DNA of 29,031 nt from a virus. Its lineage: Duplodnaviria; Caudoviricetes. Positions 319 through 23,099 of the stretch are shown here, piece after piece; position 1 is the first letter of the stretch, and every line of letters starts with the position of its first letter. The stretch is from positions 1 to 29,031 of the IMG/VR virus record IMGVR_UViG_3300020161_000747, one strand, 5' to 3'. The position numbers were made by a program, and so were the translations under genes. Under the pieces are notes generated by a model that made no database searches, was not told the DNA's origin, and was given only the letters and a program-made list of their open reading frames with translations.

Positions 319-915
319 CTTCCGAGCACTGTGCGTTGAACTGACCGACTGCCTTGAAAAAGCCGACTGGCCGAACCAATACAAAATCGTCTTCCAGCAG
401 TGGATTGACATTGCCCACGCTGCTTTGGCTGAACCAGATGGACCGGCTGTGTCTGACGACAGGGAACCGGCCTCTGCCACTGACCAGATTACTCATCAGC
501 TTCACCGTCGAGCCACGGTCCTTCTGATCCGCAAGGTGATTGATCAAGCCATCCGCGATACTGCTTCAGTTCAGTGGCGGGTGGCTGATACCGGCGAGCA
601 ACTTGTCCGCGCCAGCGACCTAGTGGCGTGGGCAGATCATATGGAACAACAAATGGAGCAGCTCAATGACTAACCAGCACTCAGTCACTATGTTAAGTGA
701 CTTGATAGAACAACTTGAATCAGGCATTGATTGCTATGAGATTAGTACGAGCCAGGCTCTTGCTCGTGCTTACGCCGCAGGTGCTGATCAACAGTTAGAA
801 CTAGATGCAAAGTGGCTAGATCACAATGCTCTAAACGAAGCACATCTAAAGATTGCTCCAATGGGCGAGGTATTAAAAGAAGCGATGCGCCCCAAGCCGC
901 CGAGCTTGAAGGAGC
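196..915 (+). repeat. 28-bp identical direct repeat CGCCCCAAGCCGCCGAGCTTGAAGGAGC (196-223 and 888-915)
   Basis: Read directly. Also ATCCGCCGCGC at 286-296 and 987-997. Confidence 0.95.
311..673 (+). CDS. Hypothetical phage protein (MTDFRALC...)
   Basis: ATG at 311 is coupled to the upstream stop (ATGACTGA) and is in frame with ORF 248-673. Its stop overlaps the next ATG. Confidence 0.75.
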   Translation: MTDFRALCVELTDCLEKADWPNQYKIVFQQWIDIAHAALAEPDGPAVSDDREPASATDQITHQLHRRATVLLIRKVIDQAIRDTASVQWRVADTGEQLVRASDLVAWADHMEQQMEQLND

Positions 916-1019
916 AGGCGCTTGCTGAGCTTGATCTATTAAAGGCAGACGCGACTACTCATGGTCTTGGCTTTGACGCACCTGCCATCCGCCGCGCTCT
1001 TGAATCCCTACCCTCTTAG
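666..1019 (+). CDS. Hypothetical phage protein, RPKPPSLKE family paralog
   Basis: GADQQL, RPKPPSLKEQAL and IRRALE motifs, as in 1-318. Confidence 0.8.
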   Translation: MTNQHSVTMLSDLIEQLESGIDCYEISTSQALARAYAAGADQQLELDAKWLDHNALNEAHLKIAPMGEVLKEAMRPKPPSLKEQALAELDLLKADATTHGLGFDAPAIRRALESLPS

Positions 1020-1031
1020 TCAACATCACTA
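1017..1031. repeat. TAGT-N7-ACTA inverted-repeat site joining a stop codon to the next ATG
   Basis: TAGT CAACATC ACTA ATG. The TAG is the stop of 666-1019. Confidence 0.85.
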
Positions 1032-1241
1032 ATGACCCAACAACTTTCACCTGCTGCACAGGCAATTCTTGACGCTGCCGAAGCTGGGCTTGATGGCTAC
1101 ATCGAACTTTTACCGCCCACATGGAAGTCCAGTGTTGCCGCCGCCCTACGCGTTGCTGCTGATCAGTTCTTTTATGACTGGAACGGTATGTGCTGCGAAG
1201 AGCATCTCAAATCCATCGCTGCCGAGCTTGAAGCCCAGTAG
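1032..1241 (+). CDS. Hypothetical phage protein (MTQQLSPAAQAILDA...)
   Basis: 69-aa ORF bounded on both sides by TAGT-N7-ACTA sites. Confidence 0.8.
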   Translation: MTQQLSPAAQAILDAAEAGLDGYIELLPPTWKSSVAAALRVAADQFFYDWNGMCCEEHLKSIAAELEAQ

Positions 1242-1253
1242 TCCGATCAACTA
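1239..1253. repeat. TAGT-N7-ACTA inverted-repeat site joining a stop codon to the next ATG
   Basis: TAGT CCGATCA ACTA ATG. Confidence 0.85.
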
Positions 1254-1430
1254 ATGACCGACCAACAGATTATTCAAGCTGCCCTTGAGGCAGGTCTCTG
1301 CTTCCCGGAATGCTGGGCACTGACTAGCCCCAGTGACCCAACTGAGGACATCAGCGACGTCTGGGGCAGCTATGAGCAGGGCAAGATGCAGACGCTTCGC
1401 CACTTCGCTGAACTGATCAAAGCCTTGTAA
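1254..1430 (+). CDS. Hypothetical 58-aa protein (absent from ORF track)
   Basis: MTDQQIIQAALEAGLCFPECW...HFAELIKAL*. Same ACTAATGACC start context as 1032. Followed by TAAT-CAGATTC-ACTA. Confidence 0.75.
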   Translation: MTDQQIIQAALEAGLCFPECWALTSPSDPTEDISDVWGSYEQGKMQTLRHFAELIKAL

Positions 1431-1453
1431 TCAGATTCACTACTGCTCGGAAC

Positions 1454-3118: not shown

Positions 3119-3561
3119 ACGATTCCATCACCTTCACCGTCCATGGGCTGCCAGCGCCCCAAGGCTCAAAGCGGCACATGGGCAACGGTGTCATGGTGGA
3201 ATCCAGTAAGAATGTCAAACCATGGCGGCAGGACGTCAAGTTCACAGCCCTAGCCGCCAAACCTGCCAACTGGGACACCGCTCCAGCTATGTCCCTTTCA
3301 GTAGTGTTCCGCTTCCTTCGACCATCATCCCACTACGGGAAAAAGAATGCGCTACGCCCGTCCGCCCCCCAGCACTGCACTTCAGCTCGCAATGGCGACA
3401 TTGAGAAGCTGATTCGCTCCACTAACGACGCCCTTACTGGTGTCCTTTTTGACGATGACCGCCAAGTTGTTACTGTCACCGCCACCAAGCGTTACTGCAC
3501 AGCAAACGAACAACCGGGCGCTGTCATCACGCTCACTGCGCTAACACCTAACGCCTCATGA
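3115..3561 (+). CDS. rusA: RusA-family Holliday junction resolvase
   Basis: PAPQGSKR, WRQDV, GDIEKLIRSTNDALTGVLFDDDRQVV catalytic Asp/Lys pattern. Confidence 0.9.
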   Translation: MNDSITFTVHGLPAPQGSKRHMGNGVMVESSKNVKPWRQDVKFTALAAKPANWDTAPAMSLSVVFRFLRPSSHYGKKNALRPSAPQHCTSARNGDIEKLIRSTNDALTGVLFDDDRQVVTVTATKRYCTANEQPGAVITLTALTPNAS

Positions 3562-4256
3562 CTTACCCAAACCTCGCGGGCGTCATCACCAAAGATGACG
3601 TATTCCGTAAAGGGACTGGATCCTACGCCGCAGACTACGTTTCCTGGGCGCGGATCGCAAATCACCTGCACGCCAATGCACCAGGCTGGCAGTTCGCCCT
3701 CATGCAGGACGACGCTGGCAACCACGTCTGGAAAGCACCAGACGGCAGCGGTTACATCATGGGTTACTTCCGTGGTCCTGATGGGGAATCAACTGTTTGC
3801 TTCCCGTACCCTTGCCAGGATCACAGGAATCAGCCTGTCGCTTTTGACAAGGTATCCTGCCGCGTTTTAACAGACACGCATCGCCGTGGCCTTTGCGCTG
3901 CAGCCGCTTACTTCTTTAGCCTTGGCTACGAGTTATGGGCACGCGAAGAAGTAGAGGAGGCAAAAGGTGAACCTGCATCGCCACCTGTTACACCTTCAGC
4001 GCCTGCCAAAGCAAAACCTGCCGCCACCGCTACAAAGGATGAATCGGCACCTGATCTAGACGCTGAGGACCTCCCGATCACGGACAAGGATCTAAAAACG
4101 ATCCGCGACCTGTTGGCAGCAGAAGCTGTTGTCAAACGCAACAAGATCATCAAGGAGTTCAACAAGGCGTTTGAGGTGCCAGAAGGTGAGCTAATGACAG
4201 CTCATATCACGCTCCCTAAACACCTGCGGTTTATCCAGGAGCGTCTGTCCACCTAA
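3558..4256 (+). CDS. Single-strand annealing protein, Sak/Rad52-like (DUF1071-type)
   Basis: YVSWA and RRGLCAAAAYFFSLGYELWARE motifs, Pro/Ala linker and small C-terminal domain. Lies between RusA and SSB. Confidence 0.7.
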   Translation: MTYPNLAGVITKDDVFRKGTGSYAADYVSWARIANHLHANAPGWQFALMQDDAGNHVWKAPDGSGYIMGYFRGPDGESTVCFPYPCQDHRNQPVAFDKVSCRVLTDTHRRGLCAAAAYFFSLGYELWAREEVEEAKGEPASPPVTPSAPAKAKPAATATKDESAPDLDAEDLPITDKDLKTIRDLLAAEAVVKRNKIIKEFNKAFEVPEGELMTAHITLPKHLRFIQERLST

Positions 4257-4487: not shown

Positions 4488-4798
4488 GCAATCTCGCCGC
4501 TGACCCCGAACTCAAGACCGTTGGTGATCGTGAGGTTGCTAACTTCACCTTGATGGTCAACAAAAAGGTAAAAGGCGAAGACCGTACAACAGCACTTCGC
4601 TGCGCCGTATGGGGTCCACGCGCTAAGGTCGTCGACGACTTCTTGACCAAGGGCAGTCAAATCACCGTGACCGGACAGGCGTACATCGAGACGTTTGAAC
4701 GGAAGGACGGCACTCCTGGCGCATCACTTGATGTTGCAGTTAACGACTTCACGTTGCCGCCGAAACAAAAGGCTGCAGCCGACGACATGCCGTTCTAA
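4466..4798 (+). CDS. ssb: Single-stranded DNA-binding protein
   Basis: VGNLAADPELK, VANFTL, LTKGSQITVTG and acidic C-terminal DDMPF. Confidence 0.95.
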   Translation: MLQITAVGNLAADPELKTVGDREVANFTLMVNKKVKGEDRTTALRCAVWGPRAKVVDDFLTKGSQITVTGQAYIETFERKDGTPGASLDVAVNDFTLPPKQKAAADDMPF

Positions 4799-4805
4799 TG
4801 TACCC

Positions 4806-4831
4806 GGGGGCTTTTGCCCCCTTTCTTTTTT
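4806..4831 (+). terminator. Intrinsic terminator after ssb
   Basis: GGGGGC-TTTT-GCCCCC followed by TTTCTTTTTT. Confidence 0.8.
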
Positions 4832-4835
4832 CTCG

Positions 4836-5759
4836 ATGGCTGATCCGCTCCGCGACTATCTAAACGAAATCGGCAAGATCCCTCTGCTAACGGGCGCAGA
4901 GGAGATCGAACTTGGTCATGCAATCAAACGGATGACGGAGATACGAGACAACGACAACCCAACCAAGCAGCAGCAACGCATCATCAAAATCGGCAAGCGT
5001 GCCAAAGAACGCATGATCAAAGGCAACCTACGCCTCGTGGTAGGTGTTGCCAAAAAATACAAGCACATGACCAATCGCCTTACCATGCACGACTTAGTGC
5101 AGGAAGGCAATATCGGTCTGATCCGTGCGGTAGAACTTTTCGACCCTGAGCGCGGGTACAAGTTCAGCACCTACGCCTACTGGTGGATCCGGCAAGGCAT
5201 CATGCGTGCGATTCAAACGTATGACCGGATCATCAAGCTGCCAAGTGGCGCCATCGAGGTATTGCGTAAGGTCCGGTCATTCTCGATTGAATACCAGCGC
5301 CAGCACGGTCGAACGCCAAGTATTGAAAGCTGCGCTGAGTTTGTCAATGTCACACCGCGAGCGATGAAATACTACATAGCCGCTTCTATAGATGCTGGCA
5401 GCCTTGACGCCAAGGTCAACAACTCAGGCGAAGCAAGCACCTACATCGAACTGATCGCTGCTGATGATGACCCTACTTCTGATGACGTTGAACTGGACAC
5501 ACGGATAGAAGCGGTGCATCAGGCGTTAACGCACATGAGTGATGAGGCAAGACAGCTTATTGAGTTACGGCACGGGTTAAAAAACAACGAGCCGAAGTCA
5601 ATGCGCGACATCGCCAAGGCATTAAATCTCGCCCAAGACAACACCAAACGAAAAGTCCACCAGGCTGAAAACGAAATGAAACTGATCTTGAAGAAGGGAC
5701 CGCCAAAAAAGCATTCCCTACAGAGCAACAGCTCCAGCTTGATCTGGGGTTGGGGTTAA
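4836..5759 (+). CDS. Phage-encoded RpoD/sigma-70-family sigma factor (no region 1.1)
   Basis: DPLRDYLNEIGKIPLLT (region 1.2), NLRLVVGVAKKY, DLVQEGNIGLIRAVELFDPERGYKFSTYAYWWIRQ (region 2). ATG at 4836 lies just after the terminator. Confidence 0.93.
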   Translation: MADPLRDYLNEIGKIPLLTGAEEIELGHAIKRMTEIRDNDNPTKQQQRIIKIGKRAKERMIKGNLRLVVGVAKKYKHMTNRLTMHDLVQEGNIGLIRAVELFDPERGYKFSTYAYWWIRQGIMRAIQTYDRIIKLPSGAIEVLRKVRSFSIEYQRQHGRTPSIESCAEFVNVTPRAMKYYIAASIDAGSLDAKVNNSGEASTYIELIAADDDPTSDDVELDTRIEAVHQALTHMSDEARQLIELRHGLKNNEPKSMRDIAKALNLAQDNTKRKVHQAENEMKLILKKGPPKKHSLQSNSSSLIWGWG

Positions 5760-8435: not shown

Positions 8436-8747
8436 TCAGTTATTCCAGGGAACGCCGGCAGCTTTGGACGGATGACGTTGCTCGTCGATTTGTGCCTGAA
8501 GAGCAGCTTCAATTTCGGCAACTTTCGGGTCACCGCCAAGGGCTTCCTTGACCCAGCCGATTACTTCATCCTCAGTCAAGTCTGAATACGGGATCAGGTT
8601 GTCGGGGCGCTGGAAACCGATGCTGCCGTATGCCGAGCTGGAATACGTGCCATCGTTGGCGGCAATGGTGTAATGAGCAGTAAAAACGAAGCCGTCGTCG
8701 GTTTCGCGCTCAAGGGTGCTGATACCCCACGTGAAGGTGGTGGCCAT
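8436..8747 (-). CDS. Small tail-fibre-associated protein
   Basis: TFTWGISTLER...IPYSDLTEDEVIGWVKEALG...GVPW pattern, directly downstream of the fibre. Confidence 0.75.
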   Translation of the reverse strand: MATTFTWGISTLERETDDGFVFTAHYTIAANDGTYSSSAYGSIGFQRPDNLIPYSDLTEDEVIGWVKEALGGDPKVAEIEAALQAQIDEQRHPSKAAGVPWNN

Positions 8748-8818
8748 GGTAAAAACCGTGTTCGCTAGCAGGTTAGTAGTGGTGCAACCAGTTGGATAGT
8801 GCCGGTTGCCCGCACGAG

Positions 8819-8833
8819 TAGTGAAGGGGACTA
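8819..8833. repeat. TAGT-N7-ACTA site immediately after the tail-fibre stop
   Basis: Minus strand: TGA T TAGT CCCCTTC ACTA CT. Confidence 0.8.
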
Positions 8834-8834
8834 A

Positions 8835-10724
8835 TCAGTTTGCCTGCATGATGATCCAGTTGGTGCCATCACTTACTAATGTTGCAAATCTGCCGGCAGT
8901 AGCCGCAAGTATTGCAGTACCGGCCGCGCCGCCTGCAAGTGGAACCACATTGGAAGATGCTGAGACGACCGTGAATGCAGCAATGGTTTTTAGCATGATT
9001 TCACGGCCAGTCCAAGCACTTGCAGTTGGTAGCGTCACCGTGATGGAGGCTGTGCCGTTGCAGATCAGCCAGTTTTCTGTGATGCCGACAGTAAACGCCC
9101 CTGTCTTTGTAACAGGAGCACCACGCCCAATGGCACCTGCATACCTAGCAAAACCATTGCTATCAATACGCAGGCGCTCCGTCGGAGAAGAAGCCCCATC
9201 CGCCGTTGTAGAAAATACGAGGCGGCCTGGCATGTCGTTAGTGCCGGGGGTGCCGTCTACAGCTACGGTGATAGAAGCTGCGCTAACAAAGTTAGTACCG
9301 TCGTCACCAGTAAACTGGATTCCACCAAGGCCGTCTCCGCTTTGAACAATGGCGCGAGTTCCGACGCTTGCGCCACGAGATTTGCTAAAAATGTATTCTG
9401 AAAAAGCGGTATTATCTGACCAGCGACCACTGTTTACATAAGCGAGTGCGCCGGTGCCGTGCACCTGTAACCCCGCTCCGAGTAACGCGGTAAAGCTTGT
9501 AGACGTACCAACCAAGAGCCTGCCGCTGGAGTCGATGCGGGCGAGCTCACTGGATGGTCCTTGAACAATGAGCGGTGCAGTTGATGCTGCAGCTTTGATA
9601 TCAAGCGTGCCTCCAGGGCTTGTGCCAATCCCTACTCTGCTGTTGTTATCTACAGTCAATGCAGTGGTTGGCGAACTTGTAGCGCCCCGTTTGATATAAA
9701 TATTGCCCGTAGTGCGTTCAAAGCCAATTTCCGCTGTGGTTTCGCTTGTATTTGCCGAGCCAAACTGCATGTAGGAGTATGCGTTTGCGCCAACGTCAAA
9801 GCGGAAGCCGTCCTGTACATTGATCTGAAACTTGGCTGCTGGGCTCGCAGTGCCAATCCCTACGTTGCCTGCAAAGTAATTAGCAGCAGTGCCGTTAGCG
9901 TAGAAGTTAAAACGACCAGTGCCAGAAGCAATGTTGCTATAGAAACCAAAGTTATTAGTGGCGCCTGTTAAAGCAGCGTCAGCAAAGAACCCGTACTGAC
10001 TGGTGATAGCCGATCCAGCGCCAACAGTGCTCTGGCTTGCCTTGTAGTGCGTTAAATTGCCAAGAGTAAACGCAGCCGCTTGCGTTGAGATATAGCTAGA
10101 ATGACTTGTATATACGTTAGTCTGTGCCGAGCTAACTACTGTATCATCATAAATACCATTGGCGGTTGTTCCAGAGCTATAGTTAGCCGTGCCTCCGCCA
10201 ACGCCAATCTTTTCATTGCCTGTATAAGATCGGCCAACAAGTACGTTGCCTGCCGAGGTGATGCGCAGGCGTTCGGTGCCATTAGTGCTGATGGCTACTT
10301 GGTCTGCGCCGGGGGAGTAGATGCCGGTGTTGGTATCGCCGCTAAAGAACAATCCGGGGGTGCTGACGCTGCCCGCAATAATCCCCAGCGCACCGGTCAT
10401 CGTGTCGCCGTTCACGTCAACAAACGTGCCGGTCTCACTGCGCCATGCGCTACCGTCCCACACCTTGAACACATAGGTGCCGCCGGTGGTATCCAGCCAC
10501 TGCTCACCCAGCGTGTTACCAGTTTCACCACCAGAAGCAGGACTAGCGTTTGGTGCCGTGGTGCCAACATGCACAGGACCAACCTTCACAAGGCTGCCGC
10601 TGGCACTTTTGAAAAATAGTCCGGGGCTTGTCGCTTCAGTATTAATAGCAATCTGCCCGTCAGACATCGCCGCAGGGGTCGGGCGCTTGTTGGCGGTGCT
10701 ACTACGAAGATGCTGCAGAGCCAT
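8835..10724 (-). CDS. Modular tail fibre / receptor-binding protein
   Basis: Repeated ERLRI.S.G and VGIGT.SP beta-modules, N-terminal anchor, C-terminal TVTLP...SDGTNW domain. Confidence 0.85.
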   Translation of the reverse strand: MALQHLRSSTANKRPTPAAMSDGQIAINTEATSPGLFFKSASGSLVKVGPVHVGTTAPNASPASGGETGNTLGEQWLDTTGGTYVFKVWDGSAWRSETGTFVDVNGDTMTGALGIIAGSVSTPGLFFSGDTNTGIYSPGADQVAISTNGTERLRITSAGNVLVGRSYTGNEKIGVGGGTANYSSGTTANGIYDDTVVSSAQTNVYTSHSSYISTQAAAFTLGNLTHYKASQSTVGAGSAITSQYGFFADAALTGATNNFGFYSNIASGTGRFNFYANGTAANYFAGNVGIGTASPAAKFQINVQDGFRFDVGANAYSYMQFGSANTSETTAEIGFERTTGNIYIKRGATSSPTTALTVDNNSRVGIGTSPGGTLDIKAAASTAPLIVQGPSSELARIDSSGRLLVGTSTSFTALLGAGLQVHGTGALAYVNSGRWSDNTAFSEYIFSKSRGASVGTRAIVQSGDGLGGIQFTGDDGTNFVSAASITVAVDGTPGTNDMPGRLVFSTTADGASSPTERLRIDSNGFARYAGAIGRGAPVTKTGAFTVGITENWLICNGTASITVTLPTASAWTGREIMLKTIAAFTVVSASSNVVPLAGGAAGTAILAATAGRFATLVSDGTNWIIMQAN

Positions 10725-14404: not shown

Positions 14405-17400
14405 TCAAGCCTCCTCAATAAAGTTGCTGGTGGAGACCAGATCTTGGGCGATAACACTACGGTAGCTGGCGTCGGTGGGGAAATGGCTCGCCACGATTTC
14501 AACCAAACCTTCCGCGTCAAGGGTCAGTTGCTCCACCACGTAGGTATTGGATGAGGTGGATCCTGTGACGATGGAGAAAACTGAGCCGTATAAATCTGCC
14601 TGTGTGGTGGCGCCATTTGAAACAGTCAGCGTTCCAGCGGATACGGTCTCAGCGGGTGGGCGGTAATAAACAACGGAGTAGTTGCCGTTGGCTAAGGGTG
14701 TGGCTGAAGTGATGGCGCCAGTTTCAGAGACCACGCCGTTGTTGACGCCGCTGTAGGGGCTGGATTCTGTGATGACGCGGATGTAGGAACCGGGGGCAAG
14801 GTTCAAGCCTTGGGGCGTTGTTTTGAAACGGACGCTGTGAGTAACACGGCGACGAATCGACAAGATGTACTTTGCCGCCAGCAAGGCGTGGTCTTTACTG
14901 GTGCAGTATTGGGTCAGGTCAAAGGATTCAATACGGTCTGAAGTAGATGTTGTGTTGTTCCAGCGCAGATTGAGGGTGCGCTCTACGGGCAACTGATTTT
15001 TTGCGCCTTGGCGATAGCGCATTACAGCTTGGATGTTGTTGCGTTCTTCGCTGTTGAGGTATTCAATCGTGAACGTATCTTCGATGATGTTGCCGCTTGT
15101 GAACAGGGCGCTGATGGGGACAGCATCGGTGCTGATCCCACCCGAAGGAGTTGTGGGTATGGCAGGTACCAGGCTGAACAAGCCATCACGAATTACAAAG
15201 TTGCACAGGAAAAATGGGGCAACACTTGTGATGAAATCCCTGATGTTGGTTGCGTCAACGATGGCGCCATCAAAGAAGAGTTTGTTAGTACGCAGGAATC
15301 GGGCGACTGCCGCAAAGTCGTTAGTTTTAATCTGAGCCGGACTGATTAAAGTTCCCGCGCCAGCGACCGGATCTGTCAGTAGGTAGTAGATCAGATCGCA
15401 AAGCAGGTTGCTGGCCCCAACGGTTCCGGCTTCGTCAGGGTGGAAACGTGTAACGGGCAGTCCGTCATCTTTCCAAACACGGACCTGATCGAGCTGCGCG
15501 TAGGTTTTAGATGCCTTCAGCGCCAAGCCCATCATCACCATGTTGGTGTACTGAGGGGTGGTCGGGTTGTCTACGATTTCGTTGACGTAAACAATCTCGT
15601 GCTCTGGCGCATCGTTATTGCTCTTTTGCAGCAAGTCGCTATAGAAACTTACGTCGGCAAGTTGCGATTTGTCTTCAAAAATGCGATCTGCGTTTAGACC
15701 CGCAGGGATAACAACGGTCTGCAGTGAATCAATACGGACGTTTGGACCAAAGATCAAACCGCTTAAGTTTGGGACTGCGCCAGTTGTAAGAACAGGGTTT
15801 GTTGCTGATGCCGTTTGCTGCGCCACGAAACTTTCGTTGACTGTCCACGAACCCGTTGATCCAGCCGGATTGACGCTAATTCCGAGATCGCTCCAGATTC
15901 GTCCGAACAGCTCTACGGGCAGGAAAGAACCATTGTTAGTAATAAGTTGCGCAGACCACGTAACGCTGATTGTTTTGGAGCCGACCGTGTAAGTGCGTGT
16001 GCGTGTAGCGACTTGTCCGAGGTCGTAGCTGCCACCGCCGCTTTTGTAGTAAGGACCAAATTGTTCCCAGAGAAAAGCTTGACGCAGGCGCCTTTGGATT
16101 GTTGCGTCGTTCTGGTAATTTTCAGGTGTCCAGTACGCGATGCTTGCTGCGCTTGGCAGAGCGTAGGTAACGGAAGAATTGGTAATCTCTCCGTTTTGGG
16201 TCATCTCAAGATTAAATTCCAGCTCGGTTACATCACGTTGTTTGCCGACGCCGTAAATCTTGAAGTCGCCGTATGCAGTGGATACTGTTCTGGACAGTAG
16301 GGCGTTTGAATCAGTTAAATACCTTTGGTCTAGTTGCCAAAACAAGTCGCCCACGCCCATGTGCCGAATGGTGTTTGCGCTAGAGCGAGGTACGAATCGA
16401 AACTCCCACTGCTTTGTTTCAAAACCACCTGAACGAGGATGCTCGAAGCGCAGGAAGTTGTATAGGTCAATCGGTTGATCGCCGCTAATACAGAAACTAG
16501 CTCCCATCAATGACCACGCATATTCGTTACCGTTTGCGTCTAGTTCGGCGGGGCGTACTTGTACGGCGAAAACAGACGTACGCTGAAAATACTGCGTCAT
16601 CTGTCCATTTTGTGTAATAACTTTTTTCTTTTGTAGACGTTCAAATTCGTCTGGTTTTGGCAGATTGCTGAAATTACACAGGCCGTTGGCGTAGTTAAAT
16701 ACGCGACTTTTAAAGCCGATTTCTGTGCAGTCGCAAGTACGACTGTTACGCACCAAGCCGATTTGGGTACGCAGCAAAGGGTAGAAAGATACGGGAATGA
16801 TTGAAGTAGCGCCTTCGTTCAGGTCTGGATCACTTGTAACGCCGGTAGTGAGATAGTACGTGTTGAGGATTCCAACTTTGCGGTTGTCTCCTGGAGAACC
16901 AAGCAAATCAATGCATCGCAGTGTTATGTCTTGCGTCATGTTTTTACGTGGCATCCACAACGCTTGCGTGCGATTAACGACTTTCCACACCGTGAAGCCG
17001 ATTTGGATTGTCTCGCCTAGTTGAAGTTGTGAATCGGCGGAAATAGCTTGGGAATCTAGTTCACTGTTAATGTCATCAATTTTTACGTTTTTCATCCGAA
17101 AACCGTCATTTTCTGTGCGATCAGACCAATACAGCTCTTTGCGTAAGCGGGTTGGATCAATCCTGAACACGCAGGTATCGTTGATCGCTGCTTGCATTTC
17201 GATAAATTTAGTAGCACCAGTAGCGGTATACGTAGTGCTGCCTCGTTGCAAAGAAATAACTCCCATGCGACGGCTATACGCTCGTCCTGTTCCTTGTTGT
17301 CCTCTATTTCGTACTTTATTTTCCCAGTCGTTTGTTCTGCCCTTAAGTGCATAATCTCCTGTTACTTTGACTTGCTCCAGCACGACGGGTTTGATGTCGT

Positions 17401-22655: not shown

Positions 22656-22679
22656 GTTTGTGAACGGTAGTGGCTACCT

Positions 22680-23099
22680 CTAGTCTAGGTAGGCTTCAAA
22701 CGTAGCAGTCAACTGAGTCTGAAAGTAAGGCTCAGGTGCTGCAGGCGTTACTTGTGCTGGTCCCGAGGCTGCGTCAAAGATAATGCTGCTGAACTTTGCG
22801 CGGTCAAACTTGTCCTTGATCCGTTCTGCAATGGTGAAGTTTGCGGCGGTGCCTTGACCCTGTGGCGTAAAGACGTTGACCACCAGCGTGCCAGTCTGAC
22901 GGTTGAAGCCAGTGCTGGGACCAAGCAGCGTGGCGTAGTTATTATCGCCAAAGCGGATGAAGACCTGCACCCATGATGTGTTGTTAGGTGGGGTGAACGG
23001 CACGTTTTGGTAGCTGACTTGGTAGGCAGGTGATAGTGCCAGCTCCGTTGCGATGCGTCCTTCAATGGCAGCGCGAACGTCGTTGTAGGTGCTGCTCAT
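22680..23099 (-). CDS. Tail terminator protein
   Basis: YQNVPFTPP, G.LVVNVFTPQGQG; position before the tail tube. Confidence 0.75.
   Translation of the reverse strand: MSSTYNDVRAAIEGRIATELALSPAYQVSYQNVPFTPPNNTSWVQVFIRFGDNNYATLLGPSTGFNRQTGTLVVNVFTPQGQGTAANFTIAERIKDKFDRAKFSSIIFDAASGPAQVTPAAPEPYFQTQLTATFEAYLD

Follow-up and report, generated by a model that had tools for sequence, protein, structure and literature searches.

Palindromic 15-bp sites at which cyanophages of lakes exchange small genes and parts of tail fibres

Genes and sites of the window

The DNA analysed (the window) is a stretch of 29,031 nt from the record of a siphovirus-like phage that is 59% complete, and its first 2.1 kb gave short matches to Synechococcus phages only (5 records). 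Near its left end, small ORFs are separated by the element TAGT-N7-ACTA, and the three exact copies and the TAAT-armed variant reported in the initial annotation were all confirmed (Table 1). As had been described, the left arm supplies the in-frame stop (TAG or TAA) at the first three junctions, and ATG follows the element at the first two. The remaining copy, at nt 8819, is exact as claimed but does not itself provide a stop, since it begins behind the tail-fibre stop codon.

Table 1. Coordinates of sites and genes in the window
Feature	Position (nt)	Strand	Remark
117-aa ORF (phrog_32006)	666-1019	+	terminates at first site
Site, spacer allele CAACATC	1017-1031	+	exact match; TAG is stop of ORF 666-1019
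Cassette 1, 69-aa ORF	1032-1241	+	missing or replaced in near-identical strains
Site, spacer allele CCGATCA	1239-1253	+	exact match; overlaps stop of cassette 1
Cassette 2, 58-aa ORF	1254-1430	+	homologues occur between other spacer pairs
Array-end site, drifted (TAAT arm, spacer CAGATTC)	1428-1442	+	derived from allele CAGACCC
Sak-like single-strand annealing protein (weak)	3558-4256	+	PF06378, E=4.3e-4, 20.3 bits against cut-off of 22.3
DUF7936 gene	8436-8747	-	fixed right-hand neighbour of tail-fibre array
Site, spacer CCCCTTC	8819-8833	-	exact match, one base past tail-fibre TGA
Tail-fibre gene with embedded sites	8835-10724	-	
Embedded site D	9206-9220	-	lost in window
Embedded site C, in LLVGTST	9500-9514	-	degenerate
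Weaker second copy of site B	9620-9634	-	
Embedded site B, in VGIGT	9848-9862	-	one mismatch
Embedded site A, in QVAISTN	10283-10297	-	one mismatch

Three exact copies were present against a mean of 0.15 after shuffling, and three or more were reached in 0 of 100 shuffles. One-mismatch copies numbered 8 against 5.05 expected, a count reached by 9 of 100 shuffles; being near the chance level, each of them needs outside support. The copy at nt 1428 is regarded as a drifted form of the common CAGACCC site because homologues of that gene end in such a site. Four further copies, embedded in the tail-fibre gene (A, both copies of B, and C), had been missed, so that the earlier list was incomplete, and one of its entries could not be upheld: the one-mismatch copy at nt 22668-22682 is site-like in only 6 of 48 distinct orthologous junction sequences and is attributed to chance. 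In relatives, any of TAA, TAG and TGA serves as the stop at this junction and indels occur in its spacing, which makes it an example of neutral-junction drift in these phages. Copies at nt 16331 and 23432 are located inside genes and correspond to no spacer allele.

RusA and SSB proteins are encoded in the window as well, and nt 4695-5759 encode an RpoD-like sigma factor. A C-terminal module of 35 bases is common to ORFs 1-318 and 666-1019 (nt 196-230 and 888-922, 91% identical) and is present in about 600 viral stretches. ATGAC-stop overlap junctions lie at nt 311-318 and 666-673, and in relatives such junctions also connect the same gene ends with unrelated genes. A direct repeat of 38 bases (nt 2149-2186 and 2388-2425, 74%) ends at the start codon of a small gene in both copies. 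Between the last site and the DUF7936 gene is a structured-looking stretch of about 70 bases (nt 8748-8818, minus strand), the motif of which was found in 50 of 62 loci free of the recombinase described below versus 0 of 71 loci carrying it.

Spacer length, alleles and order in relatives

The element is one of a widespread family in picocyanobacterial phages; as a boundary element it is frequent and precise, and the phages that carry it differ in structure and range from about 30 to 85 kb. Searches with window proteins gave 103 loci, in which the spacer was 7 bp in 47 distinct contexts and 8 bp in 18, and any other length was represented by 0 to 7; the 18 contexts with N=8 were set aside as something different, several of them resembling LexA boxes. 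When the gene end was fixed and the spacer left free, the spacer was 7 bp in 97 of 105 contexts, and when the gene start was fixed, in 77 of 93; both patterns demanded the second arm within 2-14 bases, and the gene-start set contains chance hits. The enrichment of N=7 at gene junctions, which the initial annotation had put forward as a check, was thus found in relatives. About 20 spacer alleles were recovered in these two scans. A scan with a 14-base pattern yielded mostly chance hits, and its 120 loci were excluded from all counts. The TAG is the stop of an ORF of at least 45 codons in 296 of 374 sites and is retained in the remaining sites too. No phage gene family tracked the sites among 22 genomes, and no description of the motif was found in the literature searched. 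As a separate observation, TAGTAC-N4-GTACTA palindromes resembling the cyanobacterial LexA consensus were seen in five loci, L217:9969-10040 (three in tandem), L121, L126, L181 and L203.

Variants of the two arms are mirror-symmetric (AGT 363/356, AGA 22/19, AGC 16/10, AAC 12/8; rho 0.80) and reappear, less evenly, in the protein-query set, while beyond the 4-bp arm there is weak base bias only. An RNA hairpin was ruled out, since none of the four window sites folds (folding z -0.9 to +1.1) and 71 of 128 variant sites are unable to pair on either strand, with compensation in 3 of 128.

Spacers are conserved as alleles, which stay exact while four-fold sites diverge. Among pairs with a common gene end, the spacers were identical in 1250, at 34% four-fold divergence, and differed by one base in 307 and by two in 219; pair counts here and below reuse sequences and hence are not independent. 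Within an array, by contrast with 33 expected, only 6 of 352 site pairs had identical spacers (128 distinct arrays; minimum 19 in 2000 permutations), and within series identical spacers numbered 1 versus 23.4 expected and 5 versus 34.5 expected. The series to which the window's array belongs runs TCTACAC, CAACATC, CCACCTC, CCGATCA, CAGACCC, and that behind the tail fibre runs GTTCTCC, CCTACTC, CATTACC, CGCTTCC, CACCTTC. Spacer order agreed across genomes in 279 of 286 pairs, counting allele pairs seen at least 3 times. In 66 arrays obtained from protein queries alone, 224 of 224 pairs were ordered, with 0 reversed and 0 identical; this set shares some contigs with the first, and one allele was ranked from the loci of this set itself. 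Sites within arrays are co-oriented. Co-orientation, different spacers and fixed order are more in keeping with cassettes being replaced slot by slot than with inversion or free reordering.

Palindromic elements of fixed spacing that overlap a stop codon in most cases might instead be bound by regulatory proteins (as stoperator-like roadblocks, LexA-like operators or translation-coupling signals) and coincide by chance with gene boundaries, these being the places at which selection spares random recombinants; inverted repeats with no assigned role precede small genes of Microbacterium phages in cluster EG (PMC7302621). A free spacer should then drift, whereas the alleles are exact despite four-fold divergence; moreover, within-array uniqueness and order are left unexplained, no RNA hairpin is formed, and copies occur within fibre coding sequence without a start or stop role. 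The cyanobacterial LexA box, given as AGTACWNWTGTACT, has an 8-bp spacing, one base longer than the 7 bp found here, and an inner AC/GT that the sites lack (PMC3091678). A regulatory origin of the pattern is regarded as unlikely.

Exchange of cassettes and sites inside tail-fibre genes

Cyanophages of lakes swap small genes and tail-fibre parts at these sites. Sorting yielded 215 distinct cassettes, which fall into 166 families and of which 166 hold a single ORF; in the first slot of the window, 12 cassettes represent 12 unrelated families. The spacer is linked to either flank (z 26 and z 31), and given the spacer the flanks are independent (z 0.8). Near-identical strains lack the gene at nt 1032-1241, with ends at its two sites. 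In sequencing runs X2 and X3 (one independent study), depth was 0 over nt 1121-1200 with the flanks covered, and contigs from them differed from the window by 0-2 bases over nt 895-1030 and 1231/1239-2400. The match of one contig ends at nt 1030, and matches resume at nt 1231 and 1239; in one contig nt 1030 is joined to nt 1239 with intervening sequence present. The proposals that the small ORFs are exchangeable cassettes and that breakpoints in relatives fall at the sites are therefore supported, with unrelated genes per slot, unlinked flanks and the absent gene.

At sites, the linkage ratio across the junction was 1.02, compared with 9.4 for ATGAC-stop overlaps and 375 for ATGA overlaps as controls, and unrelated downstream DNA was seen in 106 of 138 pairs at sites versus 39 of 59 at site-free ATGAC-stop junctions. 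The same spacer accompanied 138 of 196 common gene ends and 151 of 232 common starts, against a background of 9%; a different spacer was present in the other 58 and 81, respectively, and in 8 of 14 near-identical cassette pairs a flanking spacer differed. Spacer identity is thus not strictly required, and several of the 8 cassette pairs would fit order-keeping deletions between unlike sites.

Tail-fibre genes carry four more ordered sites (A to D) with spacers of their own, spelled by rare codons. The embedded copies are retained through rare codons in 39 of 47, 21 of 23, 62 of 76 and 32 of 50 cases of the four fibre motifs, for example GTA in 20 of 23 versus a background of 21%, and the VGIGT motif itself carries a site. 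Control motifs gave 0 of 21 and 0 of 60, both being unable to spell a site and hence weak controls. At site D, the base directly outside the arm is free (TTA 23 and CTA 19 of 53); some codons further from it are also conserved, so common descent contributes. The order A-B-C-D is violated in only 2 of 104 fibre ORFs. Pairs similar upstream of an embedded site numbered 68, and 2 were similar downstream too. Sequence identity extends no more than 6-12 bases beyond site B, leaving a conserved island of about 15 bases (95% inside, 45-52% beside), and linkage across site D decays by 10-19 bases irrespective of the site. Sites B, C and D were also observed in the tail fibre of the cultured phage S-H1 (L224, 29851-30348), in which no integrase is annotated.

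Candidate recombinase and comparison with known systems

As the initial annotation stated, the window holds no tyrosine recombinase, and in some relatives one does adjoin the tail-fibre array. In two genome sets, PF00589 was matched by 7 of 49 and 5 of 35 members. One family of 282-aa recombinases is encoded between the tail-fibre array and DUF7936, its gene standing behind the position of the window's 8819 site; it is intact in 8 of 80 genomes and missing from the majority of site-rich ones. Of 45 loci, 30 have a site at most 1.5 kb upstream of the recombinase, and none of 59 has one downstream on the same strand; look-alikes on the opposite strand were seen in two loci. The recombinase varies together with DUF7936 (rho 0.58; 38 of 60 close pairs) and is not linked to the upstream DNA (rho -0.02; 0 of 60), so that it appears to be a fixed platform instead of one of the cassettes between sites.

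The 282-aa candidate scores above the PF00589 cut-off and has a predicted tyrosine-recombinase fold (pLDDT 79) resembling the integrase cores of Tn1549 and lambda (TM about 0.5); its activity is likewise a prediction. R144, K178, R240 and Y272 are invariant (18 of 18), and the two catalytic His positions are Tyr237 and Asn263. Its length suggests that there is no arm-binding domain, following the classes in PMC8138268. It had no sequence match in the PDB, fell far below every NCBIfam cut-off and gave no match in 301 host-family genomes, a set with many small or incomplete members. A protein scan of bacterial genomes returned short contigs of metagenome-assembled genomes only. C-terminal fragments of the family were noted at G030:C1:45397-45537 and G018:C1:83431-83547. 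Sites are retained in 52 of 55 recombinase-free tail-fibre loci, a divergent recombinase clade has no sites nearby, and the complete genome G029 carries the recombinase, yet no array site. Embedded sites were retained in 65 of 71 cases beside the recombinase versus 94 of 121 otherwise (p=0.017), a difference that is suggestive only.

Gene A12 of Synechococcus phage S-LBS1 (MG271909) encodes a protein 80% identical to the candidate, also after the tail fibre; ahead of it lie the embedded sites B, C and D, plus two others. The original publication describes it as a lysogeny integrase and proposes different att sites for it; integration was not detected by mitomycin C induction, and the available text does not mention TAGT-N7-ACTA sites (PMC6157547).

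The elements are ordered, heterospecific, palindromic exchange sites. Inverted arms and a 6-8-bp spacer enclosing the crossover, as in tyrosine-recombinase sites, are present here, but binding elements of about 11-13 bp are not, the bias past the 4-bp arm being weak, and the arms, at 4-6 bp, fall well short of the 11 bp of Xer arms (PMC13141974). The reading preferred here, with chances judged about even, is that the 15-bp elements are crossover points, likely heterospecific tyrosine-recombinase sites served by an enzyme acting in trans. A protein dimer would read the two (T)AGT half-sites on double-stranded DNA, with the spacer as strand-exchange region, and a cassette would be replaced through two crossovers between co-infecting genomes. 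Owing to the 7-bp cores, two genomes would preferentially recombine at corresponding slots, and deletion inside a single genome would be disfavoured; a crossover between unlike spacers would now and then remove units and shift cassettes without disturbing the order. The enzyme would be the 282-aa recombinase of the S-LBS1 gene A12 family, which comes from a minority of phages and would act in trans on recombinase-free genomes such as that of the window; this identification, a predicted link of position only, is the weakest part.

Retention of sites in recombinase-free loci and the lack of a gene family tracking them in 22 genomes would also be expected if the sites were short homology linkers for phage Sak, SSB and RusA, together with common gene-end modules. 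Different spacers would then avoid deletions, order would be inherited, the integrase would be a passenger and the palindrome a separate signal, e.g. a nicking or loading site starting homologous exchange. Such proteins are encoded in the window (the Sak-like match being weak), modules of 30-40 bp are common to gene ends, and site-free ATGAC-stop junctions shuffle as well. However, neither the same arms around about 20 spacers nor the strict 7-bp length is required by homology alone, and mirror-symmetric arm tolerance is left unexplained; an out-of-frame TAG retained by rare codons in four different fibre motifs and a site B island of little more than 15 bases also speak against linkers. We consider this alternative possible, if rather doubtful, and place it behind trans-acting recombination.

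By extension of the recombinase reading, we tentatively propose, at somewhat less than even chances, a natural population-wide cassette exchange in which one phage recombinase with short half-sites is a public good and the ordered spacers are slot addresses. If so, accessory genes and receptor-binding segments of many unrelated cyanophages would be swapped in register. If the recombinase link is true, the S-LBS1 'lysogeny integrase' would serve diversification, and its many orthogonal spacers would make such a recombinase useful as a tool. The cultured pair S-LBS1 and Synechococcus TCC793 puts the model within direct experimental reach.

Integron attC is a long folded site. A single ORF in most cassettes, a tyrosine recombinase adjoining one array and TAAC/GTTA arm variants, presumably reminiscent of integron cores, would agree with an integron proper, in which folded single-stranded sites serve to excise cassettes as circles and a single primary site takes them up again. 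The sites here, however, are only 15 bp long and unfolded, their order is conserved and not reshuffled, the spacer is linked to both flanks, the enzyme is above no NCBIfam family cut-off, and no IntI-family integrase beside attI is present in the window; an integron proper is therefore highly unlikely. In the R64 shufflon (Rci/sfx), the recombinase lies beside a tail-fibre-type gene, with sites in coding sequence and inversion within one genome. Shufflons and invertase switches have inverted sites and invertible segments, whereas the arrays here are co-oriented and ordered, so that the integron- or shufflon-type mechanics suggested initially are not supported: the sites are unfolded and carry different spacers in a fixed direction and sequence. 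In Mu Gin and P1 Cin, the recombinase gene likewise adjoins a tail-fibre gene and sites occur in coding sequence, and DNA between inverted sites is inverted within one genome (PMC8987985); the cyanophage sites, unlike these, are direct, heterospecific and exchanged between genomes.

The origin of phage mosaic junctions is an old question, and the boundary element described here is rule-bound and also divides a host-recognition protein. Boundary sequences are absent from most phage mosaic junctions (PMC3029335). PeSL cassettes of T4-type phages, which are promoter and terminator units among small genes (PMC2839356), and lambdoid boundary sequences (PMC3029335) are likewise short conserved breakpoint elements between small non-essential genes. 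Unlike PeSLs, the sites here are 15 bp long and palindromic, form no stem-loop, leave little room for a promoter and are systematically non-identical within a genome.

Another likeness is offered by pdif of Acinetobacter plasmids (XerC/D), where gene modules also lie between recombinase sites with variable spacers and exchange occurs at identical or near-identical spacers (PMC13141974). Single modules are replaced there via two crossovers between two replicons, with the enzyme encoded outside the module. The arms of pdif differ from each other and are 11 bp long, its spacer is 6 bp, orientations alternate and the enzymes are the host's XerC/D (PMC13141974). The cyanophage sites, by contrast, have symmetric 4-6-bp arms and a 7-bp spacer, are co-oriented in fixed order and occur in coding sequence too, and their enzyme is only a candidate. 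Engineered recombinase-mediated cassette exchange with heterospecific lox or FRT sites uses one arm sequence with several incompatible spacers. The logic is the same here, but natural, population-wide and with an ordered series of at least 5 spacers. The system thus works like pdif modules or engineered cassette exchange, yet belongs to neither integrons, shufflons nor pdif.
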